A stretch of 64,000 bases of DNA from Candidatus Curtissbacteria bacterium (GCA_024654445.1 JANLHP010000022.1:15332-79331), one strand, 5' to 3'. Positions 24,332 to 45,095 are shown, numbered from the stretch's first letter. Numbers and translations are program-made. Notes: generated by a model not told the origin, from the sequence alone.

Positions 24332-24351
24332 TATTTCTTTTTTCGAACCTG

Positions 24352-24384
24352 CTTGCCTCGCTCCGCTTGCGAAGCGGGTCGAGA
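24352..24384. terminator. GC-rich hairpin (CCGCTT-GCGA-AGCGG) in the short gap between the ALS-like and DmpG-like genes; a possible attenuator or terminator.
   Basis: Perfect 6-bp stem flanked by A/T runs. Both flanking genes are on the minus strand. Confidence 0.25.
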
Positions 24385-24398
24385 AAAAACGAACTTTT

Positions 24399-25469: not shown

Positions 25470-26316
25470 ATTCTTCGGCGACTAAAACAGCAGCGCTGTT
25501 TATAATATCCAAATTACCCGCATAAGTTGGTAAAAAATCTCCTCTCCCTAAAACCTCGTTCATAAACGTAAGACGGCCATTTTCAGTTACTGGCTTCATC
25601 GTTAGTTTGTATCCGGGTACGTACTTCCTTATTTCGAAAATAAATTTATTAAGTTCTTTCTCGATTAATTTTATTTTCGGTTTTGCGACTTTTGCAAAAA
25701 TCGTGTTATGCATCACAATCGGCGGCTCGGAAGGGTTAAGGATAATAATCGCTTTCGCGCCTTTAACATGTGTAAATTTTTGGATCGCGTCGCTTGTCGT
25801 TTGCGTATATTCATCAATATTATTTCTAGTGCCAATTCCAGCGGATCTTGACGCAATACTGGCAACAATTTCTACATATTCAATTTCCGGATGTATCTTC
25901 ATTAGGGCGGTAACCAATGGGGTAGTAGCTTGTCCTCCACACGTGACCATATTTACGTTTTTTTCCCTCAGACCTTCTTCTAAATTTAAAATCGGAATAC
26001 ACATTTTGCCTACCCTTGAAGGTGTCATATCGATCGTGAATTTACCGAGCTTTGCAAGAATTGGTGCGTGAACTTTATGTGCCTCCGCGCTTGTTGCATC
26101 AAAAACTATCTCACAAAAGTCAGGATTTTTAACAATCGAGTTAATCGAGTCGTAAGAAGTATTAACTCCCATCGCCTTTGCTCTCTTTATTCCTTCGGAC
26201 ATCATATTGTGTCCGGCAAAAATCCCACAATCCAAAAGTTTGGACCTCCTAATCTTCATTAAAAGATCTGATCCGATGTTTCCTGTACCAATTATTCCGA
26301 CCTTAATCCGCTTACT
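25450..26316 (-). CDS. Acetaldehyde dehydrogenase (acylating), DmpF/MhpF family.
   Basis: VGIIGTGNIGSDL NAD-binding motif and catalytic Cys region (MVTCGGQAT). Its start overlaps the DmpG-like gene, as in dmpFG operons. Confidence 0.85.
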   Translation of the reverse strand, partial: SKRIKVGIIGTGNIGSDLLMKIRRSKLLDCGIFAGHNMMSEGIKRAKAMGVNTSYDSINSIVKNPDFCEIVFDATSAEAHKVHAPILAKLGKFTIDMTPSRVGKMCIPILNLEEGLREKNVNMVTCGGQATTPLVTALMKIHPEIEYVEIVASIASRSAGIGTRNNIDEYTQTTSDAIQKFTHVKGAKAIIILNPSEPPIVMHNTIFAKVAKPKIKLIEKELNKFIFEIRKYVPGYKLTMKPVTENGRLTFMNEVLGRGDFLPTYAGNLDIINSAAVLVAEEYAKRKI

Positions 26317-26365
26317 CATCGACTTTGTAAAACTCGGGAAAACTATTGTACACCTCAAAAGGAAA

Positions 26366-27322
26366 CTAATGAAGATCGAAATACTCTCGATACCATGTTA
26401 ATATGTCTCCCATTGAAGTTTTAAAGTTGTGATTTGGCTTCCAGCCAAAAGCTTTTCTTATTTTATTAAAATTTACAGATTGGGTCGGTATTTCGTTTAC
26501 AGCGGTAGAAAGAATCCTATATTTGATTTTCTCACCAAGAATGTTTTCGACACGCTTTACAACGTCAATAACAGAAAGGTTTTCAAGGGAAGAAACATTA
26601 AAAGCTTCTCCTTGTACCTTTGATATATTGTTCGCAAGAGTCAATGTGGCGTCAACAACGTCTTTTACGTAAACATAGTCACGAATATACTTTCCATTGC
26701 TTCTTATTTTTAACTCTTTATTTTTAACAACAGACTCCATTATTCCCGGAATTAGTCTGTTGAAATTTAAATCACCCTCGCCGTAGACATTCCCAAAACG
26801 CGTGACAACAACCGGCAAGTTGTAAGTTTTAAAATAAGACCTTGCAATTAAATCTGCTGAGGACTTAGACACTTCATAAGGATGATCGCCCGAGATGGGA
26901 TTTTTCTCACTTACCCTCGGCAGCTTGCCGTATGCCTTGTCTGTTGACGTAAACAAGACGCCCTCCACCTTTCCATACAGCCTGCAAGACTCAAGAACAT
27001 TTGTGGTACCAACAACATTCGAAATAACAGTTTGCCGGGGGTTATGAAAGGCGGCATCAACTGTAGTTACGGCAGCAAGATGAAAAACCAAATCGATTTC
27101 ATTTTTGGTGATGACGGAATTTATATGATCAAAATTCCCAATATCACAATATTCAAAAACTACTTTCTCGTCAAGCTTTTGTTGAAGGAAATAAGATTTT
27201 GGGTGTATCAGCAAATCTGTTACAAAAACATTGCACCCCAGATTCACCAACCGTTCTACTAAATGTCCTCCGTAAAAACCGCAGCCTCCGGTGACTAATA
27301 CATTTTTCCCCCTTAGCGCCAT
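26366..27322 (-). CDS. rfbG: CDP-glucose 4,6-dehydratase (RfbG/DdhB-like SDR).
   Basis: VLVTGGCGFYGGHL Rossmann motif and YEVSKSSAD catalytic motif. It is adjacent to rfbF. Confidence 0.7.
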   Translation of the reverse strand: MALRGKNVLVTGGCGFYGGHLVERLVNLGCNVFVTDLLIHPKSYFLQQKLDEKVVFEYCDIGNFDHINSVITKNEIDLVFHLAAVTTVDAAFHNPRQTVISNVVGTTNVLESCRLYGKVEGVLFTSTDKAYGKLPRVSEKNPISGDHPYEVSKSSADLIARSYFKTYNLPVVVTRFGNVYGEGDLNFNRLIPGIMESVVKNKELKIRSNGKYIRDYVYVKDVVDATLTLANNISKVQGEAFNVSSLENLSVIDVVKRVENILGEKIKYRILSTAVNEIPTQSVNFNKIRKAFGWKPNHNFKTSMGDILTWYREYFDLH

Positions 27323-28083
27323 ATTTTCCAGGCAGGATTTTCCCTCCACATCTCGTTTAAATCGTTCATGTCCTGGTAAGTATCCATCGCGTGGAAAAAT
27401 CCGCGATGCTCATACAAAGCTAATTGTCTCTTACTAACAAGTGGCTCAAAAACTTCTTCAATCATCGAATCTGGTTTTATGTAGTTGAACACACCCTTTT
27501 TAAAAACCATAAACCCTCCGTTGATCAATTGTCTTATCTTGGCCTTTTTCTCAAAATCGCTAACTAGGCCGTCTCCGTTGGCATCCAGACCTCCATATTT
27601 GAGTTGCGGATAAACACCAGTCACGGTCCCAAGTGTTTTTTTACGCATATGAAATTTAACTAAATCGCGGATGTTGATGTCGGAAAGCCCGTCACCATAA
27701 GTCACCATAAAATAATTCCCATCTATATAATTCTTAACTCTTCTTAACCTCTCACCTGTCTTCGATTCAAGGCCAGTGTCGACAAAGGTAATATTCATTT
27801 TCTCCAGCAAACCGTTCTTGTGCTTTACCTTATGCGTTGAAGTATTTATCGTGAAGTCGTTATCGTAGTATTTCTTATTTATAAAATAATCTTTTACTAA
27901 GTTACCTTTGTATCCCAGGGCAATGATAAAATCATTAAACCCCCAGTGTGAGTACATTTTCAAAATGTGCCAGAGAATTGGCCTTCCGCCGACTTCGACC
28001 ATAGGCTTTGGTTTAAATTCTGTTTCCTCTTTTAACCTGTAACCTATGCCTCCGCAAAGAATAACCGTTTTAATTTTTGCCAT
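27313..28083 (-). CDS. rfbF: Glucose-1-phosphate cytidylyltransferase.
   Basis: ILCGGIGYRLKEETEFKPKPMVEVGGRPILWHI is the classic RfbF N-terminal signature. Confidence 0.9.
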   Translation of the reverse strand: MAKIKTVILCGGIGYRLKEETEFKPKPMVEVGGRPILWHILKMYSHWGFNDFIIALGYKGNLVKDYFINKKYYDNDFTINTSTHKVKHKNGLLEKMNITFVDTGLESKTGERLRRVKNYIDGNYFMVTYGDGLSDINIRDLVKFHMRKKTLGTVTGVYPQLKYGGLDANGDGLVSDFEKKAKIRQLINGGFMVFKKGVFNYIKPDSMIEEVFEPLVSKRQLALYEHRGFFHAMDTYQDMNDLNEMWRENPAWKIWR

Positions 28084-30007
28084 TCTTGTCTAAAACTTTT
28101 TTAACTAATTTCGCTATCGAGCCAGAATCTAATTGGTGGTGTTTCAAAACATCCAAATTTTGGCCGCACACGGGAACTTCTTTCAAGCCAAGTGAAATTA
28201 ACTTTTCAGGCCGCACCTTAAGTTTTAAAATCGCAGAAGCAATCATGTCCCCCTGACCCATTTTCAAATAGTGATTATCTATTGTAAAAATTACCGGGAA
28301 TTTTGCAACAACCTTTTTCAGCCAGTTGCTATCAATCTCATTTAGCCAGGGTAAATTATACACGCCAACAGACAAATTTTGAGCAACAACGCTACGGGCA
28401 GCTTTATATGCTTCACTAAGCATCACAGGACCATAAGAAATAATAGCGACATCGTGGCCCTTCAAAATCTCAACTCCACGACCTTTTTGGAGATGATAAT
28501 TTGCACGTAGACTGTAAGGAATTTGACAAGGGACGCTGACGAGCCTTATATAGGTGCTTCCGCTATTTTTTTCGACCGCCCACCTTATGGCGATTCGAGC
28601 CTCTTGCTCACACGAAGGTTCAATGATTGTAAGATTAGGTATGCTTCCGAGAGTTGAAATATCTCTCACACTTTGATGGGAGTGACCGGGACCACCGGGA
28701 ACAAGACCAGCAAGCGACCCAACATAAATAATTTTTGTATTTTCCGTCGCATTGTTGTAAATTTGCTCATTCGGTCTTGTAGATAAAAAACAAGCAAAAG
28801 AGTGAACAACGGGCAACTTCCCTGACAACGCAAGTCCTCCGGCCATAGAAGCCATATGTTGTTCCGCGATTCCGCACTCAATATACCTTTGCGGGAATTT
28901 ATTTTTAAACGGTATAAGTCCGGTGTCTAAAACCAGATCCGCGTCCATGGCTATGATGTTTTTATTTCTTCTTGAAATTTTTACAAGTTCATCCCCATAC
29001 GCTGTAACTAACCTTTGTGGTTTTTCAAAAACAGTTCTTACGGGCAGATCTGTTGTGTCAAATTTAATTGCCTTCAGCCCAAATTTCTCCAGTTTCAAAT
29101 TTATTCTTTTTGCGATTTCCTTTTGCGCACTCAAATAAATTTCAATAGCAGGCGCCCCGCTGTGAAATTTGTAATATCCGTCTTCTCCCACCTTTTCCAT
29201 AAACGAAACACCCTTGCCTTTTACCGTATCGGCAATTAGGATTTGTGGTTTATTCTTGACCTTTGCAAATTTATCAAACACTCTCTTAAGCTGGCCAAAA
29301 TCATGACCGCTGCATCTTTCAACTTCCCAACCAAACGCTTTTAATTTACCTTCTAGGTCTCCAAGATCACTAACGTCTCTAACCCAGGTATCGGATTGGA
29401 TTTTATTGTGGTCGACAATTACCGTGATCTCATTAAATTTTCCGTTTACGGCAGGTTGAAGCGATTCCCAAAAAGCGCCTTCTTGCAATTCTCCATCGCC
29501 ACACATAACGTAAACCTTCCCGGATTTACCGTCCATTCTCCTTGCCTTCACCATTCCCATCGCTTTCGAAACACCCATCCCCAAAGAACCAGTATTTGCA
29601 GCAATATAAGGCGTATTCACATCTGGATGACCTGGAAGGCCATCAACCTCCCTTAATTTATGGATAAAATTAAAAGAAATTCGTTCACTGCCAATCAATA
29701 TACTGTATAGAGCAGGAACGTCGTGACCTTTCGAGGAAAAATAAATATCAAAATTGTTCCTCTGCCATTCGTTTGGAAACTTAAGTTGATGAAGCCACAA
29801 CCAAGTTGCTATATCTATTGAGCTAAAACTGGTTCCGACGTGCCCAGATCCAGCTCTCTCTATCATATAAAGAGTATTTATTCTAAAAATATCAGAAAGT
29901 ATCTGGCAAAAATGTTTGGGATTTTTTACTCGCGATTTTATTCGCTTAATTTCACCTATTGGAGTATATGATAATTTTCTATTATATTTCGAATCCTTTT
30001 TTGGCAT
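28070..30007 (-). CDS. Transketolase-like TPP enzyme (N- and C-terminal halves fused).
   Basis: N-terminal TPP-binding domain (GSGHVGTSFS, GDGELQEG) plus a Pyr domain and the transketolase C-terminal domain. Confidence 0.8.
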   Translation of the reverse strand: MPKKDSKYNRKLSYTPIGEIKRIKSRVKNPKHFCQILSDIFRINTLYMIERAGSGHVGTSFSSIDIATWLWLHQLKFPNEWQRNNFDIYFSSKGHDVPALYSILIGSERISFNFIHKLREVDGLPGHPDVNTPYIAANTGSLGMGVSKAMGMVKARRMDGKSGKVYVMCGDGELQEGAFWESLQPAVNGKFNEITVIVDHNKIQSDTWVRDVSDLGDLEGKLKAFGWEVERCSGHDFGQLKRVFDKFAKVKNKPQILIADTVKGKGVSFMEKVGEDGYYKFHSGAPAIEIYLSAQKEIAKRINLKLEKFGLKAIKFDTTDLPVRTVFEKPQRLVTAYGDELVKISRRNKNIIAMDADLVLDTGLIPFKNKFPQRYIECGIAEQHMASMAGGLALSGKLPVVHSFACFLSTRPNEQIYNNATENTKIIYVGSLAGLVPGGPGHSHQSVRDISTLGSIPNLTIIEPSCEQEARIAIRWAVEKNSGSTYIRLVSVPCQIPYSLRANYHLQKGRGVEILKGHDVAIISYGPVMLSEAYKAARSVVAQNLSVGVYNLPWLNEIDSNWLKKVVAKFPVIFTIDNHYLKMGQGDMIASAILKLKVRPEKLISLGLKEVPVCGQNLDVLKHHQLDSGSIAKLVKKVLDKNGKN

Positions 30008-30745
30008 TTACAAGTTATTTTTTAAAACTAGCTCTGCGAGCTGAAAATCAATTTCATTATCTATATCAACAGAACTGTTCTCATCAAGCATCACAAACCT
30101 TATGCGTTTACCAGTTAACAATTTATCTTTCATTAAAGTTTCGTATCTTACGGCAATAACGTCTACATGGGCAAACGCCTGCGGCAAGAGTTGTCTGGCA
30201 ATATTAGAAGGCTCATTAAAACCTGTTAATTCTTTCGGCACAAAAGGTTTTAATTCCACGCCGTCAACACGCCAGAGCTTGTAAGGATGTTTAGGGGCAG
30301 TTTTAATAGTTCTTGCGGAAGTTGCTTTTTTGTCATTTAACAAAAGCTCGATACATGCGTCAATAGAGTCTGTCCTACAAAGTGGAGCAGTAGGGGGGAG
30401 ACGCAAAATAATATTAGGGATCCAACCCTCATTTTTTTCAAGCCATCGAACCGCATGAGTAAGATAGGTAATATCATCCGCCCGATCGCCGGCGTACTTC
30501 TTCGGTCTTAAAAATGGGACCTCGGCCCCATAATTTTTCCCAATTTTTGCGTACTTATGACTATCAGTAGAAAGTACCAAGCGTGTAATATACTTTGATC
30601 TTTTAGCGGCCTCAATAATCCAAGCCATAAGCGGTTTTCCCAAAAGTGGTTTAATGTTTTTATTCGGAATACTTCTCGACCCGCTTCTGGCGCCGACAAC
30701 TCCAAGCACTTTTAAATTTTTGCCTTTAGATATTTTCTGGGTCAT
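30008..30745 (-). CDS. CMP-ulosonic acid synthetase (acylneuraminate cytidylyltransferase/KdsB family).
   Basis: GVVGARSGSRSIPNKNIKPLLGKPLMAW P-loop-like motif of NeuA/KdsB. Confidence 0.8.
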   Translation of the reverse strand: MTQKISKGKNLKVLGVVGARSGSRSIPNKNIKPLLGKPLMAWIIEAAKRSKYITRLVLSTDSHKYAKIGKNYGAEVPFLRPKKYAGDRADDITYLTHAVRWLEKNEGWIPNIILRLPPTAPLCRTDSIDACIELLLNDKKATSARTIKTAPKHPYKLWRVDGVELKPFVPKELTGFNEPSNIARQLLPQAFAHVDVIAVRYETLMKDKLLTGKRIRFVMLDENSSVDIDNEIDFQLAELVLKNNL

Positions 30746-32189
30746 GTTTTATATAAACAGTTTTCCATTCCGAATAAACATCCAGTGCCTCCGTTCCAGG
30801 TTCCCGGAACCCATTGCCGGAATTTTTAAATCCGCCAAAAGGCATGTGAGGCTCGCTACCATGAGTTGGCCCATTTATCGAAATAACACCCGCTTGTATT
30901 TCGCTTCTGAAAACTTCAGCACGATCAATGCTTTTAGTGTGAATTGCAGCAGTCAAACCATAAACTGAATTGTTTGCAAGCTTTAGGGCCTCTGCAAAAT
31001 CTTTCACCCTAAAAAGAATGGTGATGGGCCCAAAAAGCTCGTCTTGCGAAATACTAGCTCTCTCATTCGCGTTTTCAATAATCGTTGGCACCATATAATA
31101 CCCATTTTTATGACTGGAATCGACAAGTCGTAATCCTCCGCATAAAACTCTTACGCCTTCACTTCTAGCCTTCTCTACGGCAAGCAGCATTTGTTCTAGC
31201 TGTCCGCTATTTATAACAGGGCCTAAATCATCACTATCAGAGTTCCCTAATTTCAAATTCTTAGTTTTTACAACCAACATCTTCTTAAACTTTTCATAAA
31301 CATTGTCAAAAACAATAATCCTGCTTCCGGAGGCACACCTTTGGCCTGCATTCGAAAAAGCGGAAAGAACAGCAGCATCGCAGGCTGCGTCAAGGTCAGC
31401 GTCATCGCAAACTACAAAAGGATTTTTTCCTCCAAGCTCAAGACAAACCTTTGCAAGTCTTTCTCCAGCAGTACTTTGAATATACTTTCCGACAGGAACA
31501 GAACCTGTAAAACTTACAAGGTCGACTCGGCTATCCTCAACTAAAGCTACACCGGCTTCCTCACCAAATCCCAGTATTACATTGAAAATACCTAATGGTA
31601 ACCCCGCCTCTTTTAGCACCCTTGCAAACCAAATAGCGGTATATGGGGTATCTTCCGATGGTTTCATAACAGCGGCATTTCCACACAGAAGAGCGGGGTA
31701 AGCCTTCCATGCGACATTAGCAATGGGGGTGTTGGCGGCAACTATGAGGGCGCAAACCCCAATAGGGGAACGTACTGTCATCGCGAAACGATTTAAGACC
31801 GCGCTTGTTGTAGTCCTCCCGTAAAATCTTCGCCCCTCACCGCTTATAAAAAAACCAAGCTCAACTGCAGCCAATACTTCCCCCAAAGCATCTTTCAAAG
31901 ATTTGCCTGTTTCAACAGACACGATCTGCGCAATCTCTTTTCTCCTCTGACCCATAATTACAGTCGCGTTTCTTAAAATTAATGATCTTTCGACAACTGA
32001 AATTTTTCTCCAACCATCAAGTGCCTTTGATGCTACAGTAATAGCCTTATCAACATCCTGACCATTTCCTCTTGCAACATCCGCAATAACTCTTCCAGAA
32101 TCTGGGTTTATCTTTGAAAAAAAACGTTCTGAAGCAGAAGTAATTTCCTTATTACCTACAAAGTGAAAGATTTTCTTGGGATAAACCAT
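30726..32189 (-). CDS. NAD(P)+-dependent aldehyde dehydrogenase.
   Basis: ALDH signatures (LELGGKNP, FSNAGQRCASGSR with catalytic Cys, and the EELFGPI glutamate site). Confidence 0.85.
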   Translation of the reverse strand: MVYPKKIFHFVGNKEITSASERFFSKINPDSGRVIADVARGNGQDVDKAITVASKALDGWRKISVVERSLILRNATVIMGQRRKEIAQIVSVETGKSLKDALGEVLAAVELGFFISGEGRRFYGRTTTSAVLNRFAMTVRSPIGVCALIVAANTPIANVAWKAYPALLCGNAAVMKPSEDTPYTAIWFARVLKEAGLPLGIFNVILGFGEEAGVALVEDSRVDLVSFTGSVPVGKYIQSTAGERLAKVCLELGGKNPFVVCDDADLDAACDAAVLSAFSNAGQRCASGSRIIVFDNVYEKFKKMLVVKTKNLKLGNSDSDDLGPVINSGQLEQMLLAVEKARSEGVRVLCGGLRLVDSSHKNGYYMVPTIIENANERASISQDELFGPITILFRVKDFAEALKLANNSVYGLTAAIHTKSIDRAEVFRSEIQAGVISINGPTHGSEPHMPFGGFKNSGNGFREPGTEALDVYSEWKTVYIKHDPENI

Positions 32190-32202
32190 ACTTTAAAAAA
32201 GA

Positions 32203-33018
32203 CTATAAAGCGGTAAAGCCACCATCAACTTTAATATTTTCTCCTGTGATGTAACGAGATGCGTCAGAGGCCATAAAAACTAATGGGCCTGCGATATCTT
32301 CACTTCGAGCCATGCGACGCAAGGGAACCCGAGCGTTAAATTTTTTAACAAAACGTCTGTCTTGATTATTGAAAACCCCACCTGGAGAAATCACATTTAC
32401 CCTGACGTTATATTTGCCCCACATCACAGCAACATATTTTGTCAAATTCAAAAGAGCCGCCTTAGAGGGGCCATACATAGGTGGTTTCAAAAATGGAGGA
32501 TCCACATCTATATGATCATAAAAATGTGGATCAGGGGAAACCGAAGCGTACAGCGAACCAACATTAATTATTGATCCTTTTTTTGCCCTCGCCATTTCGC
32601 TTCCAAAAACTTGAATCATTAAAAAAGCGCCGAGGACATTAACTGTCAATATTTTTTCACCTATCTCGTATGGTATATCTTCAAATTTGTATCCCTCCTG
32701 AACTTTCGTCGGAGGTTGGTCAATTCCTGCGTTATTAACAAGAATTAAAGGAAGACCGAACTTTGTCTTGCAATCTAAAAATGCTTTTTCAACTTGTTTT
32801 CTGTTTAAAACGTCTGCCCTTAAAAGACCTAACTTATTGCCATATTCTTCCTGTAGGAGCGAAAAAGTTTTTGGAATCACCGCATATTTCTGATCCACAC
32901 CAACAACTGTTGCCCCAGCTTCCAGAAGGGCCCTCGACCAAACAGGCCCCAAAAGCCCAAGGGCCCCAGTAACAACGGCCACTTTCCCTTCCAGATTAAA
33001 AAGATTAAGAACTGCCAT
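32203..33018 (-). CDS. Short-chain dehydrogenase/reductase (SDR).
   Basis: VVTGALGLLG, NNAG, and YGPSKAA (YxxxK). Confidence 0.8.
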   Translation of the reverse strand: MAVLNLFNLEGKVAVVTGALGLLGPVWSRALLEAGATVVGVDQKYAVIPKTFSLLQEEYGNKLGLLRADVLNRKQVEKAFLDCKTKFGLPLILVNNAGIDQPPTKVQEGYKFEDIPYEIGEKILTVNVLGAFLMIQVFGSEMARAKKGSIINVGSLYASVSPDPHFYDHIDVDPPFLKPPMYGPSKAALLNLTKYVAVMWGKYNVRVNVISPGGVFNNQDRRFVKKFNARVPLRRMARSEDIAGPLVFMASDASRYITGENIKVDGGFTAL

Positions 33019-33511
33019 TTTTAGAAGTGACTATCAAATCGCATATTTCCCTAACCGCACCCAAACCCCCGGCTTTTTGCGTGATGTAAAGAGAAACAGC
33101 CTTTACTTCTTCGTATGCGTCTGAGACGCTAATTGGAAGTCCAACTGCAGTCATACACTCCAGATCATTAATATCATTTCCGACATAAGCAGTATTTTTG
33201 TGTTCTATGTTTAACCTTTTCAATAATTGTTCGAGAGCTAATCTTTTTTCATCTACACCGGTCAAGCATGGTATCTTTAGCTTTCTGCACCTCAACCTAA
33301 CTACAGGATTTTTCTCTTTTGAAATAACCCAGGACAATATCCCTGCCTTGCGTAGCTTAGAAAGGCCGATTCCGTCGCATCTATTACACCTAACCGCCTC
33401 GCTGCCGTCTTCAAATACCCAAACAGTGTTGTCTGTAAAAACGCCATCAAAATCGAAAACTACAAGTTTGACTTCCCGGGCCCTTACACCAACAAGCTGT
33501 CGTTTAGACAT
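33005..33511 (-). CDS. HAD-IIIA KdsC-type phosphatase (ulosonate-phosphate phosphatase).
   Basis: LVVFDFDGVFTDN motif I and GND motif IV. The size (168 aa) is typical of KdsC/Kdn-9-P phosphatases. Confidence 0.85.
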   Translation of the reverse strand: MSKRQLVGVRAREVKLVVFDFDGVFTDNTVWVFEDGSEAVRCNRCDGIGLSKLRKAGILSWVISKEKNPVVRLRCRKLKIPCLTGVDEKRLALEQLLKRLNIEHKNTAYVGNDINDLECMTAVGLPISVSDAYEEVKAVSLYITQKAGGLGAVREICDLIVTSKNGSS

Positions 33512-34571
33512 ACTCGAGCGTAAGTTCTTGATCAGGTCTCAAATTTACTTTCAATACTTTTCCGTAAAATTCTTCGGCGAGGTAAGGCGGAATACCTGTT
33601 CCAGGGGATTTAAATGCAAGATCGTCCTGTTTTATTTTCTGTCCCGCCAAGAGTTTTCGTGCGGCAACGACACTTTTACCCATTTTTTGCTTGCCCCCTT
33701 CCTCTTCTTCATACGCCTTCTTTATCCCGTCACCTAAAGCCTCTCTAACTCTTTTCAGATCCCTGACCAATTTTTTCATGCCAACGGGTTCCAAAGAAAA
33801 AGCATGATCTGTTCCCCTCATCGATCTGTCAAGCGTGAAATGCTTTTCAATAATTCTCGCTCCCATCGTATAAGCGACGGGGTCAACAGAAATACCATTA
33901 AAATGGTTTGAAAAACCAATAACGATATCTGGGAATTCTCTCCGGTAAGTTTCTATAACTTTTAGGTTCAATAAGTGAGCCGGAGCGGGGTAAACAGCAG
34001 TGCAATGTAGAATTGCTAGTTTTTTATTGTATTTGACAATTGTCTCGTAAGCCCGTCTGACGTCATCAAGTGTGCCCGTTCCCGTACTGACAATCATAGG
34101 TTTTTTAAACTTGGCGACGTATGAAAGTAGGGGAGTATTTGTAATATCGCCTGAAGCTATCTTAAAGCAGTCGACGTCGATGTCTTCGAGAAAGTCAGCG
34201 CTTTTGTGGTCGAATGCCGTCGCGAAAAAAATTAGTCCAAGTTTTTTTGCATGTCTTTTTAAATGGAGATACTGACGTTTACCGAACTCTAGTGCCTGTC
34301 TGTGTAAACCATAAGTCGGACCGAAGGCATTTTCGCTATTATAAGGGGAGTTAAAAAATTTTTGAGTGTATAAAAATCTATTATTTCTCTTTTGAAGTTT
34401 TACCGCATCGACCCCACAGAATTTCGCCATCTCGAACATTCTTTCACAAGTTTCGATGTCTCCTTGATGGTTATTCCCAATTTCTGCAACAACAAAACAA
34501 TCCGAGCCGTCCGAAATTAATCTATCGCCGATCTGTAGTTTTCTGTTTGAGGTTACTGAAGCTTTCGGCAT
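33504..34571 (-). CDS. neuB: NeuB-family (sialic acid/Kdn-9-P-type) synthase with a C-terminal SAF domain.
   Basis: FVVAEIGNNHQGD...GVDAVKLQK TIM-barrel signature plus a SAF antifreeze-like C-terminus. Confidence 0.85.
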   Translation of the reverse strand: MPKASVTSNRKLQIGDRLISDGSDCFVVAEIGNNHQGDIETCERMFEMAKFCGVDAVKLQKRNNRFLYTQKFFNSPYNSENAFGPTYGLHRQALEFGKRQYLHLKRHAKKLGLIFFATAFDHKSADFLEDIDVDCFKIASGDITNTPLLSYVAKFKKPMIVSTGTGTLDDVRRAYETIVKYNKKLAILHCTAVYPAPAHLLNLKVIETYRREFPDIVIGFSNHFNGISVDPVAYTMGARIIEKHFTLDRSMRGTDHAFSLEPVGMKKLVRDLKRVREALGDGIKKAYEEEEGGKQKMGKSVVAARKLLAGQKIKQDDLAFKSPGTGIPPYLAEEFYGKVLKVNLRPDQELTLEYV

Positions 34572-34718
34572 TGAAGTATGAAGTTGTAAACTTTACTTAC
34601 AATAGTACAGAGGCAATTAAAATGCAATATGGCAACTTTATTTAGTCTGTTGATCCTAACAAAAATACAAAAAAGTAATTAAAATTAGTAAATTTGCAAA
34701 AAATAAGTTTTGAAGAAA

Positions 34719-35630
34719 TTAACTAAAATCCCCATCCCAGCGTAAAATAGGCATTTTCGTTCCGAGGTTTTTCTTTATCATAACTACCCTGATTGGGAAC
34801 AATAGAACCCTTAAAAGAGGACTTCTTTCGACACTCGATCTAAACATTCTAAATCTTGACTTTAAATAGTTTTTAATCCGAAATGTATAATAAAACTTAG
34901 CCGAACAATATTGTTTCATCAGTTCATAAGAATCACGCTCTGCAAATTTTGAATTCTTAATTATTGTGCTGTTCGCCTTTACTTTATGCACAAAAAGGTT
35001 AACCCTGCAAAATCTAACTTTCCCTCCTCTCTCTAAGGATTGGAGGGCGTAAGCGACGTCAGAACTTACTCTTGATGGATATAAGCCGATTAAGGGGATG
35101 GAACTTCGCCTCGTTATAAACCCAACTCCGCATGCACCATAATTGAAAAAGTCCTCGTAATTTTTGCCGTATTCAATACCCGGAGGAACATAAACTTGTC
35201 TTATGTTTCTGCCGATCATTTTTGATCCACCGCAGATTAATAGATCGATATCCTTATTTTTTCCCAGAACCTTAATGGCTTTTTCCATCGCCTCCGGATA
35301 AATAATATCGTCGTCGCTTATATTTTTGATATATTTTCCTCTCGCTAGCATGATCCCCTTGTTGAAGGCATGTGTAGGGCTTATATCAGGTTCGGAAATA
35401 TACACATTTACAAGTTTTCTGTATTTTTTCATAAATGCAGCAGGATCAATTTTAGACAAGCTATCAACAACTATTAACTCATCTGATGAGTTCAAAAGCC
35501 CCTCGATATTTTTAAGTATTGCCTCGATCGATTTTCCTCTATTTTTAATTGTCAAAATATAGGAGATTCTTTTTTTTGAGTAGGAATCAAAACTTGGGCG
35601 CCCTTGCATCAGTGGAAATAAACTACACAC
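34719..35630 (-). CDS. GT2-family glycosyltransferase (GTG start).
   Basis: ISYILTIKNRG and SDDDIIYPE (DXD) GT-A motifs. Confidence 0.65.
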   Translation of the reverse strand: MCSLFPLMQGRPSFDSYSKKRISYILTIKNRGKSIEAILKNIEGLLNSSDELIVVDSLSKIDPAAFMKKYRKLVNVYISEPDISPTHAFNKGIMLARGKYIKNISDDDIIYPEAMEKAIKVLGKNKDIDLLICGGSKMIGRNIRQVYVPPGIEYGKNYEDFFNYGACGVGFITRRSSIPLIGLYPSRVSSDVAYALQSLERGGKVRFCRVNLFVHKVKANSTIIKNSKFAERDSYELMKQYCSAKFYYTFRIKNYLKSRFRMFRSSVERSPLLRVLLFPIRVVMIKKNLGTKMPILRWDGDFS

Positions 35631-35789: not shown

Positions 35790-36395
35790 TTGATTTATGC
35801 AAAAATAGACTTCCTGTCCTCGCTAATGTCCGACCCAGATTTTTTTCATGACATAATCTCAGATCACGTTAAGGTTGTTCTCGAACTGCCAACAGAAGAG
35901 ATTAACGATTTAGCAGCCGACATTCAAGAAACTCTTAGGCGAGGCGGCAAAGTAATTTTCTTTGGTAATGGCGGTTCGGCTACTCAAGCTGCCCATTGGG
36001 CAGAGGAATTTGTCGGAAGATTTGTTAAAAAAAGAAAACCTCTCGCTTGCTTGGCACTTGGAACAAGCTCCGCCAACTTAACAGGAATCGCTAATGATTT
36101 CGGGTTCGATGAGGTATTCGCAAGAGAGTTGGAAGTTTTAGGAAACAAAAAAGACCTAGCAATAGGCGTATCAACATCTGGAAACTCGCCAAATATTTTA
36201 AACGGATTGCAAACTGCTAAGAAAAAGGGAATAAAATCCTGGATATTAACAGGCAAAAGTAAAAACAAAGCAAAAAAATTAGCAGACAAATCTCTTTCGG
36301 TCGCCTCGGACAAAACGGCAAGAATTCAAGAAATTCATGCTCTTGTAATCCACATGGTTTGCGAAAAGATTGACGAAAAAGTAAAAGCAAATTAA
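35790..36395 (+). CDS. gmhA: Sedoheptulose-7-phosphate isomerase (SIS domain).
   Basis: KVIFFGNGGSATQAAHWAEEF and STSGNS SIS motifs. Length is about 200 aa. Confidence 0.85.
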   Translation: MIYAKIDFLSSLMSDPDFFHDIISDHVKVVLELPTEEINDLAADIQETLRRGGKVIFFGNGGSATQAAHWAEEFVGRFVKKRKPLACLALGTSSANLTGIANDFGFDEVFARELEVLGNKKDLAIGVSTSGNSPNILNGLQTAKKKGIKSWILTGKSKNKAKKLADKSLSVASDKTARIQEIHALVIHMVCEKIDEKVKAN

Positions 36396-37699
36396 AGCAG
36401 CATCGAAACAGCTCTGTACAGATTTCTCGTCACAACTGTATCTTCCGGCACAGCGTATCGCCCGTCAGATAATCCGTAACCGGTTTCCACTGCAATGAAC
36501 TTCAAGCCTGCTCTCTTTGCGCACTCTGCATCCACAGTCGAATCTCCGATAAAATAGCTCGAATTAAGATCAATATTAAAATCTCTTACAGCCTGTCTTA
36601 TCATCCCAATTTTAGGCTTTCTGCAACTGCAGTTTATTTTCAGTTCTGCCAACTCCCGATAAAAACCTTTTTCCGGATGATGCGGGCAGTAATAAATGGC
36701 ATCCACTTTTATCCCTTCTCGTCCAAGTTCCGTCTCCATTTTTTTATGGATTCTATCTAGCTCTTCCACTCTGATAAAACCTTTTGCGATAGCTGGCTGA
36801 TTAGTGATTACTATCGCTAAAAAATCCGATTTATTAATCTTTTTAATAGCCTGAGCCGTAAATGGGTATAATTTAAAACTGGAAAACCTCACATTATGAG
36901 TCCCATCATGCTCATTTATTGTTCCGTCTCTGTCTAAAAAAATTGCTTTTCTTTTGTTTTTCAAATTTAATCTAGTGATCTTTCCAGAAGAATAGTCCGC
37001 TCTTACCCTTTTAAGCCTTGCGATAGTACCCACATCTTTAAGGTACTCAGGAGTGTTGTAGGCGAAGATCTTACCGCCACTCTTTAATACTGCCTCAAAT
37101 ATATCTTTTTCAAGATCAGATTTCTCCTTCTTCTTAATATATTTAAAGATCTCTGGCGAAAAGATGAAAATACCGGCATTAGTTAAGTTTTTAAACAACA
37201 GGCTTTTCGGATGAACTTTGTCCTTTCTTACCAGAAAAGAAATTACTTGATTGTTGGTGTCAGTCTCGACTAAATCAGAATCAAATGGGTGATCGTTCGG
37301 ATGGACGACAATTGTCGCGACAGAACCTTTATGGGCTTTATGGAATTTAGTCAGGCGATAAAGATCGATATCAAGCATTACATCGCCGGAAAATAAAACA
37401 AAATCATCTTTAACAAGCAATTCGAGTTGTTTCATAGCCCCAGCCGTACCCAGTGGTACCGCTTCTGTTAAATGGTGAATCCTTAACCCCCACCTTTCAC
37501 CGTCTTCGAAGTAATCTTCAATTTGGTCTCCTAAATGGCCTGAAAGAATCCAGAGGTTTTTTACCCCAGATCTTTTTAATAGAAAAATTTGATGCTCAAG
37601 AAGAGGTTTGTTACCAATTTTAATAAGAGGTTTAGGTGTATTGGATGTTAGCCTCCCTAACCTTTCACCCTTACCCCCTGCAAGTATTACAGCATCCAT
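36392..37699 (-). CDS. Bifunctional D-glycero-alpha-D-manno-heptose-1-phosphate nucleotidyltransferase (HddC-like) fused to HAD D,D-heptose-1,7-bisphosphate phosphatase (GmhB-like).
   Basis: N-terminus AVILAGGKGERLG...KPLI (NTP_transferase). C-terminus AIFLDRDGTIN and the CSCRKP zinc motif of GmhB. Confidence 0.8.
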   Translation of the reverse strand: MDAVILAGGKGERLGRLTSNTPKPLIKIGNKPLLEHQIFLLKRSGVKNLWILSGHLGDQIEDYFEDGERWGLRIHHLTEAVPLGTAGAMKQLELLVKDDFVLFSGDVMLDIDLYRLTKFHKAHKGSVATIVVHPNDHPFDSDLVETDTNNQVISFLVRKDKVHPKSLLFKNLTNAGIFIFSPEIFKYIKKKEKSDLEKDIFEAVLKSGGKIFAYNTPEYLKDVGTIARLKRVRADYSSGKITRLNLKNKRKAIFLDRDGTINEHDGTHNVRFSSFKLYPFTAQAIKKINKSDFLAIVITNQPAIAKGFIRVEELDRIHKKMETELGREGIKVDAIYYCPHHPEKGFYRELAELKINCSCRKPKIGMIRQAVRDFNIDLNSSYFIGDSTVDAECAKRAGLKFIAVETGYGLSDGRYAVPEDTVVTRNLYRAVSMLL

Positions 37700-37701
37700 G
37701 T

Positions 37702-38700
37702 TTAAAAATCATTCGGCATCTTGTAGATTATTTGACTACCATTGCTCTCGAATTTAAATGGCACAAATAGTAGCCTCTTAAGTTTTGCCCTTACCTTTTC
37801 CTGCTCTTCAGGCTTTACAAAAAGAAGCATAAAGCCACCCCCCCCCGCTCCTAACAGTTTGCCTCCCAAAGCTCCGGCTTCTTTTGCACTCAGATAAAGG
37901 TCGTCGATAACTTTATTAGAAATTTTAGTCGTTAGGCTCCTCTTAATTGCCCACGATTCATCAAGAAGCCGACCAAAGTCCTCAATTGGCGCTTTTGTGC
38001 TAACCAATATTTTTTGAGCATCATCAACAAGTCGAAGCATTTTTTTAAGCTCTCTTTTTTTCTTCGATGTTGCCTTAATCTGGCTTTTGGCTACATCGGA
38101 AGCATTCCTGGAAAACCCGGTAAAAAAAAGCATCAAGTGGTCAAGAAGTAAATTTTGTCTACCCTGGTTCATCATAATTGGAGTCACCTTTATTGTGGGA
38201 CCAGCAGAAAATTCAATTCTGTTCAAACCTCCAAAAGCTGCGATTGTTTGATCTTGAGAACCGACGTTTTCTTTTATCAATTTTTGCTCAACATATATAG
38301 CATCCTGCGCAAGTTGAAGTTTATCCACCATTTTTCCTTCGAGGCCATAGAGAGAATTCAAAAAACCAACCGTAAAAGAAGAGCTTGACCCCAATCCGGA
38401 CATTGCTGGAAGGTCCGCATTGTGTTGCATTTCCAGCCCCGACTCATGGCCTACAAACTTTAGGCACTCGCGAACCGAAGGATGATTTATTTGACTAATA
38501 TTCCTTTTATGCTCCTGTTTTGTATACCTAATTCTATAGTTGTATTTGAAAAAAGGCGGCAAGTGACGGCATGTAACGTAACAATATTTATTAATCGAAG
38601 CGGCAATAACAGCACCGCCGCCATTTTTTTCATACCACGCCGGATAATCAGTACCACCGCCGAAAAATGAAATCCTAAAAGGAGTTCTTGAAATTACCAT
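37702..38700 (-). CDS. hddA: GHMP sugar kinase (D-glycero-alpha-D-manno-heptose-7-phosphate kinase HddA-like).
   Basis: ISRTPFRISFFGGGTDYP N-terminus and the GHMP motif PAMSGLGSSSS. Confidence 0.8.
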   Translation of the reverse strand: MVISRTPFRISFFGGGTDYPAWYEKNGGGAVIAASINKYCYVTCRHLPPFFKYNYRIRYTKQEHKRNISQINHPSVRECLKFVGHESGLEMQHNADLPAMSGLGSSSSFTVGFLNSLYGLEGKMVDKLQLAQDAIYVEQKLIKENVGSQDQTIAAFGGLNRIEFSAGPTIKVTPIMMNQGRQNLLLDHLMLFFTGFSRNASDVAKSQIKATSKKKRELKKMLRLVDDAQKILVSTKAPIEDFGRLLDESWAIKRSLTTKISNKVIDDLYLSAKEAGALGGKLLGAGGGGFMLLFVKPEEQEKVRAKLKRLLFVPFKFESNGSQIIYKMPNDF

Positions 38701-39661
38701 TTTGCTTGTACCATTCTACAGTCTTCTGCAACCCTTCCCTCAAAGTAGTATTTGATTTAAAGCCTACCAGCCTCCTCGCAAGGGAAACATCAATCAGTCT
38801 CTTTTTTATCATCGTCGGTTTAGTTTTATCAAAAACAATCTTGGCGTCATCAAAATTTTCAACTTCTATTAGAATTTTCAAAACATCCCTAACGCTCACC
38901 GGAATACCCGTGCCGATATTGAGCGGCTTAAACTTTTTAAGTTTCGTGACTACGAGCATTACTCCTTCGATAAAATCGTCAACATACATTAAGTCCTTCA
39001 CATCTCGTCCGTCACCCCAAACTTCGATCGGATTATGCCTCTCGATAACCTTTCTCACAAGAGCCGGGACTACATGCGACGTTTCCCAAGCAAAGTCGTC
39101 ATAAGGACCATAAAGATTTGCGGGTCTGACAACAACAACATTCATCGGATCCTTTATTTTAGTTGCGTAAATCTCGCAAAGAATCTCACTATATCTCTTC
39201 ATCCAGGCAACCGGAAAATATTTGAAAAAAGGCTCTCCGTTCATCATTTCACTTTCGCGAACTGGGTGATTAGTTACAGGGTAAACGGTATTACTGCTTA
39301 TAAAAAGAAACTTCTTGGCTTTTGCTTCATAAGCGGCTTCGAGCATTAGGGAGTTCATTATGATATTCCCGGTAACATGAACAAGTGGGGTCTTTTCGAT
39401 AACCGCGGCACCCGACGTGTTTGCAGCACACATAAAAACATAATCAGCCCCACGAACTATCTTTCTGCAAAAATCCCCTTTTGTTAAATCGCCTCTTACA
39501 TAATCGATTTTAGAATTAATTATTTGTGGAGATTTTTTATGAACCGTAGCTTTAATCGTTGCTCCTTCACTCAATAACCTATTGATCAAATTTGATCCTA
39601 CAAAGCCAGCTCCGCCAGCAATGACAACTCTTTTATTTTTAAACAATCCTGCCCTCCTCAT
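38675..39661 (-). CDS. NAD(P)-dependent epimerase/reductase of the GDP-L-fucose-synthase type (candidate GDP-4-keto-heptose reductase). The start is trimmed to MRRAGLF.
   Basis: VVIAGGAGFVGSNL Rossmann motif and YPVTNHP...YxxxK-like site. It is paralogous to 41223..42242. Confidence 0.65.
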   Translation of the reverse strand: MRRAGLFKNKRVVIAGGAGFVGSNLINRLLSEGATIKATVHKKSPQIINSKIDYVRGDLTKGDFCRKIVRGADYVFMCAANTSGAAVIEKTPLVHVTGNIIMNSLMLEAAYEAKAKKFLFISSNTVYPVTNHPVRESEMMNGEPFFKYFPVAWMKRYSEILCEIYATKIKDPMNVVVVRPANLYGPYDDFAWETSHVVPALVRKVIERHNPIEVWGDGRDVKDLMYVDDFIEGVMLVVTKLKKFKPLNIGTGIPVSVRDVLKILIEVENFDDAKIVFDKTKPTMIKKRLIDVSLARRLVGFKSNTTLREGLQKTVEWYKQNGNFKNSF

Positions 39662-40205
39662 CTCTCCTGGAAATAATGGGGTTTTTGACAGGCCACCAAA
39701 TATTATATTTAGGATCATTCCATTTTATTGTGAACTGATTTTTTGGGTCGTAGTAAGAAGATTGTTTATAGTGATAAATGTCGTAAGTTGAAAGAACTAG
39801 ATGGCCATTGCCATATAGAGGGGGAATTAAAATTTGAACCCTATTTTTATCGGAAAGTGTAAAGCCTTCCCATTTGCCGAAGTCTTTTGAGTTTTTGTTA
39901 CAGTTAACAACTACAATGTAGAATTTTCCATAAAGACACGAGATCAACTTCCAAGTACGACGATCGCCATGAATCCCTTTCAATACCCCTCGAGATCCAG
40001 TCGAAATATCATCCTCCACAAACTTCAACTTTGAAGCATCTTTTTCGTAGATAGTTCCTTTTAAGTTTTTTTTAATTTCACGAATATACAAATTCTCGTT
40101 GAACAACTCTACATACTCTCCACGAAAATCTTCAAAGGGGTCAAGGTTAAAGAGCAAAAGTCCCTCAAGTTTCGTTTTTAAAATCTTCATTTTCGTAAAA
40201 TTCAA
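39639..40205 (-). CDS. RmlC-like cupin sugar-nucleotide 3,5-epimerase (GDP-heptose epimerase candidate).
   Basis: dTDP-4-dehydrorhamnose 3,5-epimerase fold motifs (FEDFRGEY, GVLKGIHGD). Length is 188 aa. Confidence 0.75.
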   Translation of the reverse strand: MNFTKMKILKTKLEGLLLFNLDPFEDFRGEYVELFNENLYIREIKKNLKGTIYEKDASKLKFVEDDISTGSRGVLKGIHGDRRTWKLISCLYGKFYIVVVNCNKNSKDFGKWEGFTLSDKNRVQILIPPLYGNGHLVLSTYDIYHYKQSSYYDPKNQFTIKWNDPKYNIWWPVKNPIISRRDEEGRIV

Positions 40206-40212
40206 TTTCGAA

Positions 40213-45094: not shown

Positions 45095-45095
45095 A

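Follow-up and report, generated by a model that had tools for sequence, protein, structure and literature searches.

A conserved six-gene cassette in a Curtissbacteria glycan locus and its candidate product, a CMP-activated, side-chain-modified 3-deoxy-2-ulosonic acid

Which sugar is made by a NeuB-type gene set that also encodes a short-chain dehydrogenase (SDR) and an aldehyde dehydrogenase (ALDH) is the question raised by a Curtissbacteria MAG, in which the entire window (as we call the whole 64-kb stretch of DNA analysed) is devoted to glycan biosynthesis. A preliminary description had placed five co-operonic genes at 30008–34571, with synthase, phosphatase and synthetase in a row. All five ORFs lie on the minus strand with exactly these limits, in the order of a NANS-like ulosonate(-phosphate) synthase of the NeuB family with a SAF domain (33504–34571, 355 aa), a KdsC/YrbI-type HAD phosphatase predicted to act on an ulosonate omega-phosphate (33005–33511, 168 aa), a classical SDR predicted to dehydrogenate the free ulosonic acid at its omega-1 carbon, C8 (32203–33018, 271 aa), an NAD(P)-dependent ALDH predicted to convert a new terminal aldehyde to a carboxylate (30726–32189, 487 aa) and a CTP_transf_3 cytidylyltransferase, the predicted CMP-ulosonate synthetase (30008–30745, 245 aa). 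The three enzymes are thus not in a row, as SDR and ALDH intervene. The successive junctions from synthase to cytidylyltransferase (8-nt overlap, 14-nt overlap, 13-nt gap and 20-nt overlap) support the co-operonic position of ALDH and SDR. The unit extends beyond 30008, however. A gene for a transketolase (TK)-like ThDP enzyme with a remodelled pocket and a predicted role in C7–C8 ketol cleavage (28070–30007, minus strand, 645 aa), previously overlooked, abuts the cytidylyltransferase gene, belongs to the same conserved cassette and is the key to the chemistry of the pathway. It adjoins the CDP-glucose genes RfbF and RfbG, and ORFs overlap or abut from 34571 to at least 24399. The AT-rich intergenic stretch of 147 bp upstream of the synthase gene (34572–34718), a candidate promoter region, is the sole gap of more than 70 nt within 24399–35630.

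A pseudaminic acid operon is also present in the window, with PseB (16381–17376), PseC (13914–15071), a GNAT-PseI fusion (6706–8358; 433.9 bits with the PseI model TIGR03586) and WbuX/HisH/WbuZ (8261–10820). It is real and distinct from the pathway discussed here, so that the locus does encode two CMP-ulosonate pathways, as had been proposed.

The synthase has both the NeuB (PF03102, 258.3 bits) and SAF (30.5 bits) domains of Pfam, and its metal-binding histidines H223 and H244 are invariant in an alignment of 25 sequences. Among NCBIfam models, it stays below the cut-offs of both the NeuB/NnaB equivalog TIGR03569 (304.7 vs 399.65 bits) and the PseI model TIGR03586 (231.3 vs 340.25 bits). With the mammalian Neu5Ac-9-P synthase P0123 it shares 38% identity over 340 aa with a single one-residue gap. 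More than 570 relatives were found in genomes, those in the loci listed being 53–72% identical. As to the phylogeny that had been suggested as a check, the synthase groups with the animal Neu5Ac-9-P synthase and not with NeuC-linked NeuB or PseI (bootstrap 90/100), in a crude neighbour-joining tree that does not include the Bacteroides Kdn-9-P synthase. Judging from its sequence, it is a member of the NANS-type clade. The phosphatase exceeds the cut-off of the KdsC/YrbI subfamily (TIGR01670, 119.9 vs 106.95 bits), has the motifs FDFDGV (motif I) and GNDIND, and falls below the models of the KdsC equivalog (NF007019, 126.4 vs 208 bits) and of KDN-9-P phosphatase (NF058599, 96.3 vs 180 bits). 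Its orthologues (48–62% identity) occur in 20 of 54 full-flank loci centred on NeuB, mostly right after the synthase; in the closest relative, L002, a remnant of 63 aa is left. A phosphorylated intermediate, as put forward in the preliminary description, is likely in this pathway, because a synthase of the NANS clade is combined with an adjacent KdsC-type HAD.

The TK-like protein possesses all three domains (Transketolase_N, Transket_pyr and Transketolase_C); its best NCBIfam transketolase model scores 362.3 bits, below the cut-off of 488, and its closest structures are those of human TKT (208 bits). In 40 aligned orthologues, the equivalents of H37, K75, H77, R101, H110, D155, N185, H258 and E366 (numbering of human transketolase) are invariant. 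R318, S345, H416 and R474, which we take to be the residues that bind the sugar phosphate, and D424 are replaced in all 40, except that a single orthologue keeps Ser at 345; D424 has become Pro within an invariant GPGHSHQ motif. The residues described as surrounding the X5P-ThDP adduct of human TK (PMC8016368) are therefore split cleanly, with catalytic and cofactor residues kept and phosphate ligands and Asp424 lost. Such a pocket would fit a dephosphorylated pyranose substrate with O6 as the ring oxygen.

The SDR (adh_short_C2, 148.8 bits; NNAG and YxxxK present) has gluconate 5-dehydrogenase, D-mannonate oxidoreductase and KduD as its top named sugar-acid models in NCBIfam, all of them at scores below cut-off (156.4 vs 279 bits for gluconate 5-dehydrogenase and 124.6 vs 369 for KduD) that indicate resemblance only, lie in the same range as those for uncharacterised oxidoreductase and glucose 1-dehydrogenase models and just modestly exceed those of generic FabG-type models. 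Three of its five closest solved structures are gluconate 5-dehydrogenase or KduD. The ALDH meets the superfamily profile (PF00171, 501.5 bits) and carries the catalytic motifs ELGGKNP and GQRCAS. The alpha-ketoglutaric semialdehyde dehydrogenase GucD (NF042993) is its best NCBIfam model, at 418.4 bits well below the cut-off of 770, and lactaldehyde/glycolaldehyde-type models are also strong (316–328 bits). The substrate of the best-scoring family, 2,5-dioxovalerate (alpha-ketoglutaric semialdehyde) dehydrogenase, is a 2-keto-3-deoxy acid with an omega-aldehyde. The cytidylyltransferase passes the Pfam cut-off (PF02348, 72.4 bits) and scores best with PseF in NCBIfam (120.5 bits, cut-off 205.7), with KdsB models at 44 bits or less.

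The same six genes in the same order were found in CPR, Vampirovibrionales, Chloroflexi, Alphaproteobacteria and Gemmatimonadetes (loci L007/L084, L009, L016, L018, L036, L040, L050, L065, L066 and L085), and carriers of the cassette are also known from Proteobacteria, Chloroflexi and Acidobacteria. With presence and absence scored on stop-to-stop ORFs within 7–10 kb in MAG-dominated samples, the genes accompanying NeuB in the 54 full-flank loci were recorded as patterns of HAD (H), SDR (S), ALDH (A), cytidylyltransferase (C) and TK (T), among them HSACT in 13, -SACT in 11 and --ACT in 7. The SDR, 37–67% identical across phyla, is present in 44 of the 54, and the TK-like gene in 36; 34 of these 36 also have the ALDH (51–66% identity), the exceptions being L001 and L041. 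In most loci the cytidylyltransferase gene lies immediately before that for TK. A reverse search that started from TK gave, in 18 loci with usable flanks, SDR in 17, cytidylyltransferase in 16, and ALDH and a NeuB-family gene in 14 each. Architectures vary: NeuB-SDR alone was seen in five loci, and SDR and HAD are missing from seven loci of the Anaerolineales type. By gene order, the six genes are a conserved unit across phyla, and ALDH and SDR, whose orthologues accompany the synthase across these phyla, belong to the pathway and are not housekeeping genes.

The trio of SDR, TK and ALDH is contiguous, in that order, in seven usable-flank loci centred on TK. In L095, L102, L114 and L117 it is followed by NeuC, a different NeuB and a cytidylyltransferase, with no HAD; a NeuC homologue occurs in 15 of the 80 TK-centred loci, all 15 metagenomic and with the trio next to the NeuC-containing pathway, and the synthase of the window is 32–34% identical to the NeuB of these NeuC-type loci. 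The trio is thus a module found alongside nonulosonate synthases of other kinds as well. Its position beside NeuC/NeuB/NeuA-type genes indicates that it acts on something nonulosonic acids share and not on the precursor, which makes it a tailoring module for these acids.

With a confidence not far short of even, we propose that the six-gene cassette is self-contained and makes, from central metabolites, a CMP-activated, side-chain-modified 3-deoxy-2-ulosonic acid destined for the surface glycan encoded by the rest of the window. The NANS-like synthase would condense PEP with a hexose 6-phosphate, in the simplest case mannose-6-P to give Kdn-9-P (ManNAc-6-P or another is possible), and the KdsC-type HAD would remove the 9-phosphate to release the free acid. 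The SDR would then oxidise the C8 hydroxyl to a terminal ketol, HOCH2-CO-CHOH-; C8 is chosen because in sugar acids the penultimate carbon is the one that the nearest relatives of the SDR oxidise. This unphosphorylated ketol would be the donor for the TK-like enzyme, and going by nomenclature, 8-keto-Kdn read from C9 is 3S,4R D-threo, as transketolase donors need. Cleavage between C7 and C8 would release a two-carbon unit, for which the scheme names no acceptor, and leave a C7 aldehyde, to be oxidised by the ALDH to the carboxylate of a 3-deoxy-hept-2-ulosaric acid (C7H10O8). The cytidylyltransferase would form the CMP-sugar either before or after the SDR, TK and ALDH steps. Together these three steps would amount, in enzymatic form, to shortening sialic acid with periodate and then oxidising it. 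Of the two roles offered earlier for ALDH and SDR, oxidation of a side chain thus came closer, although the TK-like gene had been left out of account. The wider proposal, that in many phyla an omega-1 dehydrogenase, a phosphate-blind transketolase and an ALDH 'periodate-trim' the glycerol side chain of Kdn or Neu5Ac to yield CMP-3-deoxy-heptulosaric acids, we hold with a little less confidence. No description of this side-chain route was found in the literature searched; if true, it would put transketolase chemistry to a new use in the tailoring of glycans.

An unlikely alternative is oxidation without truncation, in which, after dephosphorylation, the SDR would form an aldehyde from the C9 CH2OH, which the ALDH would turn into a carboxylate, giving a CMP-3-deoxy-nonulosaric acid, with TK accessory or unrelated. 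Three alphaproteobacterial loci (L031, L047 and L059) have NeuB-HAD-SDR-ALDH with neither TK nor cytidylyltransferase within 10 kb, and a Moorena locus has NeuB-SDR-ALDH. There is also a precedent in the Kdo8N pathway of Shewanella, where the alcohol dehydrogenase KdnB oxidises the C8 hydroxyl of free Kdo to an aldehyde, which is transaminated by KdnA ahead of CMP activation by KdsB. The route proposed here would likewise oxidise the side-chain end of a free 3-deoxy-ulosonic acid via an aldehyde before CMP activation, but Shewanella employs an Fe-ADH and an aminotransferase instead of SDR, ThDP enzyme and ALDH, without C–C cleavage and with an amine, not a carboxylate, as the product. Oxidation alone, however, leaves unexplained a TK found in two-thirds of the NeuB-centred loci and nearly always together with ALDH, and gives no role to the TK that stands between SDR and ALDH in NeuC-type loci. 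The nearest relatives of the SDR act on secondary, omega-1 alcohols. Furthermore, the cytidylyltransferase, which is indispensable, is missing as well from the loci without TK, and the pair of cytidylyltransferase and TK is therefore probably located elsewhere in those genomes.

Tailoring of the aldose-phosphate precursor, the other role offered earlier, appears improbable. Under this reading TK, SDR and ALDH would make or modify an aldose(-phosphate) before condensation with PEP; sugar phosphates are the usual substrates of transketolases, and the reduced central metabolism of CPR makes a dedicated supply enzyme conceivable. The loss in TK of the four phosphate-binding residues and Asp424 speaks against it, and the ALDH would destroy the very aldehyde required by the synthase. 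Pathways of the NeuC type, in which the sugar comes from UDP-GlcNAc as unphosphorylated ManNAc, have this trio attached as well, and the cassette is also found in Proteobacteria, Chloroflexi and Acidobacteria, which normally carry housekeeping transketolases.

Slightly more doubtful still is a redox-neutral truncation, in which the SDR would oxidise C8 and, after the TK step, re-reduce the C7 aldehyde, with the ALDH turning glycolaldehyde into glycolate and a CMP-3-deoxy-heptulosonic acid as the product. The tight coupling of TK and ALDH would then be explained as a sink for the C2 unit, in line with the matches to lactaldehyde/glycolaldehyde-type models. A single SDR would, however, have to act on two different carbons, the ALDH scores highest with models of 2-keto-3-deoxy semialdehyde dehydrogenases, and we know of no precedent. 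That ALDH, SDR and TK simply happen to lie beside the pathway, as housekeeping genes or as members of the CDP-dideoxyhexose branch downstream, with plain CMP-Kdn or CMP-Neu5Ac as the product, is very improbable and already contradicted by the comparative data: the TK gene does abut RfbF and RfbG here, but the cassette recurs elsewhere without any CDP-sugar genes, stands alone between unrelated flanking genes in L084 and L085, and its orthologues co-occur across phyla.

In its outline (PEP and a sugar 6-phosphate to ulosonate-9-P, free acid and CMP-sugar), the proposed six-gene route resembles the animal NANS-NANP-CMAS pathway and the Kdn route of Bacteroides thetaiotaomicron; as in the latter, a KdsC-type (C0 HAD) phosphatase follows the synthase and a CTP_transf_3 synthetase is present. 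It differs from both in three extra conserved enzymes (SDR, TK-like and ALDH) within the operon, and in that synthase, phosphatase and synthetase are all below NCBIfam equivalog cut-offs. With the classical NeuC-NeuB-NeuA pathway it has the synthase fold and CMP activation in common, whereas the cassette has a phosphatase, and the window has no NeuC. The TK-like enzyme shares with human TKT and E. coli TktA the three-domain layout, ThDP, metal and the catalytic His, Lys and Glu, and the proposed reaction would be the ordinary first half-reaction of a canonical transketolase, cleavage of a ketol donor; unlike these, it has Arg318, Ser345, His416, Arg474 and Asp424 replaced and is encoded inside a CMP-sugar operon. 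Gluconate 5-dehydrogenase, KduD and mannonate oxidoreductase all yield a terminal ketol by oxidising a sugar acid at its penultimate carbon, whereas the substrate of the SDR would here be a nine-carbon 3-deoxy-2-ulosonic acid.

The predicted product is of the same class and has the same formula (C7H10O8) as Dha, 3-deoxy-D-lyxo-hept-2-ulosaric acid, which occurs in plant RG-II, prasinophyte walls and some rhizobial LPS, and whose biosynthesis and activated form are still given as unknown (PMC12168206; PMC3355719). By nomenclature, a product derived from Kdn would be the L-arabino isomer and not D-lyxo, and we found no link between the cassette and Dha-containing organisms. If true, ours would be the first proposed biosynthetic route to this class of sugars, as far as our literature search showed. 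In two loci (L041 and L075), the cassette is adjoined by KpsC/KpsS-like Capsule_synth proteins, candidates for the transfer of the sugar.

The preliminary description had placed genes for a NeuB-like synthase, a phosphatase, a synthetase, an aldehyde dehydrogenase and a short-chain dehydrogenase between 34571 and 30008; our ORF calls agree with these coordinates, and Pfam and NCBIfam confirm each family. On the minus strand are encoded a NeuB-family synthase with a SAF domain (34571–33504), a KdsC/YrbI-type HAD phosphatase (HAD; 33511–33005, DxD motif in the translation), a classical short-chain dehydrogenase (SDR; 33018–32203, NNAG and YxxxK), an aldehyde dehydrogenase (ALDH; 32189–30726, ELGGKNP and GQRCAS) and a CTP_transf_3 cytidylyltransferase (CTP; 30745–30008), with gene ends that overlap or almost touch. 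Synthase, phosphatase and synthetase do not, however, stand in a row as described, since SDR and ALDH lie between the latter two. The cytidylyltransferase gene is abutted by one for a transketolase-like protein of 645 aa (TK; 30007–28070, minus strand), and co-directional overlapping genes run well past 30008, including, besides TK, a glucose-1-phosphate cytidylyltransferase, a 4,6-dehydratase, DmpF/DmpG-like genes and more. Upstream of the synthase there is a single sizeable gap, 147 bp of AT-rich DNA (34572–34718). No operon boundaries could be defined from a consensus promoter and terminator scan of the window.

More than 570 genome matches to the synthase were confirmed, the best 80 being 53–66% identical and originating from CPR, Vampirovibrionales, Chloroflexi, Alphaproteobacteria, Acidobacteria, Gemmatimonadetes, Actinomycetota, Planctomycetes and Moorena. 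ORFs were called in the homologous loci (numbered with the prefix L) and searched with the window proteins, and the arrangement NeuB-HAD-SDR-ALDH-CTP-TK was found again, in identical order, in distant lineages. Among 54 NeuB-centred loci flanked by 7 kb or more on each side, 13 carried all five partners of NeuB, 11 all but HAD, 7 ALDH, CTP and TK only, 5 SDR only and 3 HAD, SDR and ALDH only, alongside rarer patterns; TK and ALDH occurred together in 34 loci and TK without ALDH in two. Judged by gene content, the transketolase-like gene is part of a conserved cassette. In L084 (Vampirovibrionales) and L085 the six genes sit between unrelated ones, and therefore look sufficient to lead from central metabolites to the product.

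Several loci depart from this arrangement. In L002, the nearest relative (64–72% identity to the window in five proteins), HAD is cut to a 63-aa remnant between NeuB and SDR (9043–9234), so that this locus either does without the phosphatase or has a substitute for it. In L001 (Daviesbacteria), where TK is present and ALDH absent, the KdsC-type HAD forms one fusion protein with an N-terminal cupin (9082–10008) weakly matching DUF386 (YhcH/YjgK), a family that in E. coli is associated with the handling of sialic acid. L089 has a gene for a KDPG/KHG-type aldolase between ALDH and TK (5113–5802), and the NeuB of this variant is 37% identical. KpsC/KpsS-like Capsule_synth proteins adjoin the cassette in L041 and L075, which would fit the transfer of a Kdo-like acid.

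Against the NCBIfam equivalog models for NeuB and PseI the window synthase stayed below the cut-offs, and its nearest solved structures were distant only. With a human NANS sequence (mammalian Neu5Ac-9-P synthase) as bait, the database gave Neu5Ac-9-P synthases 96–97% identical to the bait. The window synthase shares 38% identity with a retrieved Neu5Ac-9-P synthase, in an alignment of 340 residues interrupted by one gap of one residue, and 34% with the PseI of the same window, with 15 gaps. In a crude neighbour-joining tree the cassette synthases clustered with vertebrate NANS, apart from NeuC-linked NeuB and PseI (90 of 100 bootstraps), and a KdsC-type phosphatase was found in 20 of the 54 loci, usually directly downstream of the synthase. 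Both results support the phosphorylated intermediate suggested earlier, after the logic of animals and Bacteroides, and the front end of the cassette would thus belong, by phylogeny, with the NANS-type phospho-route. As no gene for making ManNAc-6-P was found in stand-alone cassettes, mannose-6-P, giving Kdn-9-P, would be the simplest substrate. At the back end, the CTP_transf_3 family member is a predicted CMP-ulosonate synthetase.

The association was also approached from the transketolase. An alignment of TK orthologues was used to scan metagenomes and yielded 80 loci, 18 with usable flanks; these contained SDR (17/18), a cytidylyltransferase (16/18), ALDH (14/18) and a NeuB-family gene (14/18). 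SDR, TK and ALDH were contiguous, in that order, in seven of the 18. In four of these seven (L095, L102, L114 and L117) the trio is followed by a NeuC-type UDP-GlcNAc 2-epimerase (Pfam Epimerase_2), another NeuB, 34% identical to that of the window, and a cytidylyltransferase, and HAD is absent; the same NeuC occurred in 15 of the 80 TK-centred loci. By its gene neighbours, the trio thus goes with both the phospho-route synthase and the classical unphosphorylated route, and must then act on their shared product, the nonulosonic acid itself, whose glycerol side chain offers itself as the shared handle. We had also considered that NeuC feeds the cassette synthase in Anaerolineales-type loci; gene maps placed it in a second NeuB-CTP set, and these loci therefore show no unphosphorylated route for the cassette synthase clade.

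The best structural relatives of the TK-like enzyme were human transketolase and split transketolases. We aligned 40 orthologues to human TKT and compared them at the residues given as surrounding the human enzyme's X5P-ThDP adduct (PMC8016368). Equivalents of His37, Lys75, His77, Arg101, His110, Asp155, Asn185, His258 and Glu366 are invariant in all 40; Lys244 is kept in the pairwise alignment and shows no variation in one of 16 sequences. Across the same 40 orthologues Arg318 is replaced by Val, Ser, Ile or Ala, Ser345 by Asp (a single orthologue keeps Ser), His416 by Leu or Tyr, and Arg474 by Ser or Ile, all four being substrate-phosphate ligands in transketolase. Asp424, which recognises the hydroxyl group on donor C4 (acceptor C2), gives way to Pro, in a GPGHSHQ motif that is itself invariant. 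Since the phosphate ligands are lost while the listed catalytic-pocket residues are invariant, the enzyme should not bind sugar phosphates, but it keeps the machinery for cleaving or transferring a ketol. The split transketolase of the window (44159–45965), intended as a canonical control, proved atypical at three of these five sites (equivalents of S345, H416 and R474). A role of TK in supplying erythrose-4-P or another aldose phosphate was rejected in the light of the residue analysis and the NeuC-type loci. The orthologues would form a transketolase subfamily, with GPGHSHQ as a diagnostic motif, that genome annotation currently records as ordinary transketolase.

We propose that the synthase condenses PEP with mannose-6-P, its simplest substrate, to Kdn-9-P, which HAD would dephosphorylate. 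Among named sugar-acid models the top three for the SDR, all sub-threshold in NCBIfam, were gluconate 5-dehydrogenase, mannonate oxidoreductase and KduD, with an uncharacterised oxidoreductase and glucose 1-dehydrogenase scoring in the same range; of the five solved structures closest to it, three were gluconate 5-dehydrogenase or KduD. All three named enzymes act on sugar acids, oxidising the penultimate carbon to give a terminal HOCH2-CO- ketol, the donor used by transketolase. From such sub-threshold similarities we infer that the SDR may oxidise C8 of Kdn; the resulting 8-keto-Kdn would carry a terminal ketol and, read from C9, the 3S,4R arrangement required of donors. With 8-keto-Kdn as a pyranose, its "C4 oxygen" would be the ring oxygen, matching the loss of Asp424. 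The TK-like enzyme would then cut between C7 and C8, leaving a C7 aldehyde. For ALDH the best NCBIfam model was alpha-ketoglutaric semialdehyde dehydrogenase, an enzyme acting on a 2-keto-3-deoxy omega-aldehyde acid; here ALDH would yield 3-deoxy-hept-2-ulosaric acid, to be activated by the cytidylyltransferase. Each enzyme would thereby keep the chemistry typical of its family and all six genes would be used, and the SDR-TK-ALDH order of the NeuC-type loci mirrors the proposed order of reactions.

A simpler model, in which SDR and ALDH turn C9 into a carboxylate without truncation, remains a contender in view of the varied architectures: within 10 kb, CTP and TK are absent beside NeuB-HAD-SDR-ALDH (L031, L047, L059), NeuB-SDR-ALDH (Moorena L049, L061, L077, L080) and NeuB-SDR only (L026, L042, L010, L020, L033), and the Anaerolineales-type loci L012, L017, L011 and L079 have NeuB-ALDH-CTP-TK without classical SDR or HAD. 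It leaves the transketolase without explanation, however, and the indispensable cytidylyltransferase is missing along with TK from the loci concerned, suggesting that CTP and TK, as a pair, are merely unlinked in them; we consider such omega-oxidation less likely than the proposed cleavage. Precursor tailoring by the trio, which occurs with both synthase routes, is less likely still, as are a redox-neutral truncation and mere adjacency of SDR, TK and ALDH. In these four Anaerolineales-type loci a conserved 436–469-aa protein with no Pfam match follows TK directly (at about 15.2–16.8 kb), and in L012 and L017 an extended-SDR gene comes next, which could stand in for the missing dehydrogenase.

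A full-text literature search found no description of the cassette or the trio, the one co-mention being irrelevant. The nearest precedent known to us for the proposed route is Kdo8N synthesis in Shewanella, where the end of the free ulosonic acid is likewise oxidised before activation. The predicted product falls in the same class as 3-deoxy-D-lyxo-hept-2-ulosaric acid (Dha) of plant pectin RG-II, the biosynthesis of which reviews still list as unknown (PMC12168206, PMC3355719). Identity with Dha was rejected on stereochemical grounds, as a NANS-type C4 with mannose-derived C5 and C6 gives the L-arabino isomer, not D-lyxo. The cassette would offer a concrete six-enzyme route to a heptulosaric acid; it is widespread and apparently not annotated as such, and many bacteria of soil, groundwater and the CPR carry the trio. 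On bacterial surfaces, nonulosonic acids serve as decorations that influence how hosts, phages and immune systems recognise the cell. The tailoring known to us comprises acylation, amidination, methylation and epimerisation; we know of no carbon-chain cleavage. That a conserved trio is attached to at least two sugar-making routes implies that a class of acidic surface sugars has gone unrecognised.

Most ORFs of the window, both ends included, match glycan-biosynthesis families, several having no family match, and Wzm/Wzt and several glycosyltransferases are also present; a small-genome Curtissbacteria MAG thus devotes at least 64 kb to several rare sugars. Directly downstream of the cassette lies a CDP-3,6-dideoxy/branched-chain hexose module (19363–28083, minus strand), with RfbF (27313–28083), the 4,6-dehydratase RfbG (26366–27349), an epimerase/reductase (21648–22535), RfbH (19363–20664, 677 bits), an acetolactate-synthase-like ThDP enzyme, YerE-like by analogy (22547–24331), and a DmpF/DmpG-like acetaldehyde dehydrogenase and 4-hydroxy-2-oxovalerate aldolase (24399–26358), unusual in a sugar operon. 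A nucleotide-heptose module (35790–42242) comprises a GmhA-like SIS protein on the plus (opposite) strand (35790–36395), an HddC-GmhB fusion (36392–37699), an HddA-like kinase, two GDP-fucose-synthase-like (Fcl-like) reductases, an RmlC-like epimerase and an FkbM methyltransferase; a modified 6-deoxyheptose would be consistent with this set. A second ThDP-enzyme cluster (43063–50674, minus strand) holds, besides the split transketolase, an acetolactate-synthase-like protein (45962–47683) and PDH-E1 alpha/beta-like subunits (47683–49684), bordered by genes for an aldo-keto reductase and a GDP-mannose-dehydratase-like protein, and suggests another unusual sugar, possibly chain-extended or branched.

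A separate, complete-looking pseudaminic acid operon (4110–17376, minus strand) supports the proposal of the preliminary description that the locus makes two different CMP-ulosonates. It encodes PseB (16381–17376), PseC (13914–15071), a 550-aa GNAT (PseH-like)-PseI fusion (6706–8358), an aldo-keto reductase (12369–13274), a second, PtmA-like SDR (11575–12387), a second cytidylyltransferase (10796–11581) and WbuX/HisH/WbuZ amidotransferase proteins (8261–10820), the last suggesting a 7-acetamidino derivative. Between PseB and PseC, a 438-aa ORF (15055–16371, minus strand) has no Pfam or NCBIfam match; it weakly matches (24–32% identity) several 520–980-aa proteins near other cassettes, among them those surrounding the NeuB-SDR pairs of the Acidobacteria loci L026 and L042, and is possibly a ulosonate transferase.
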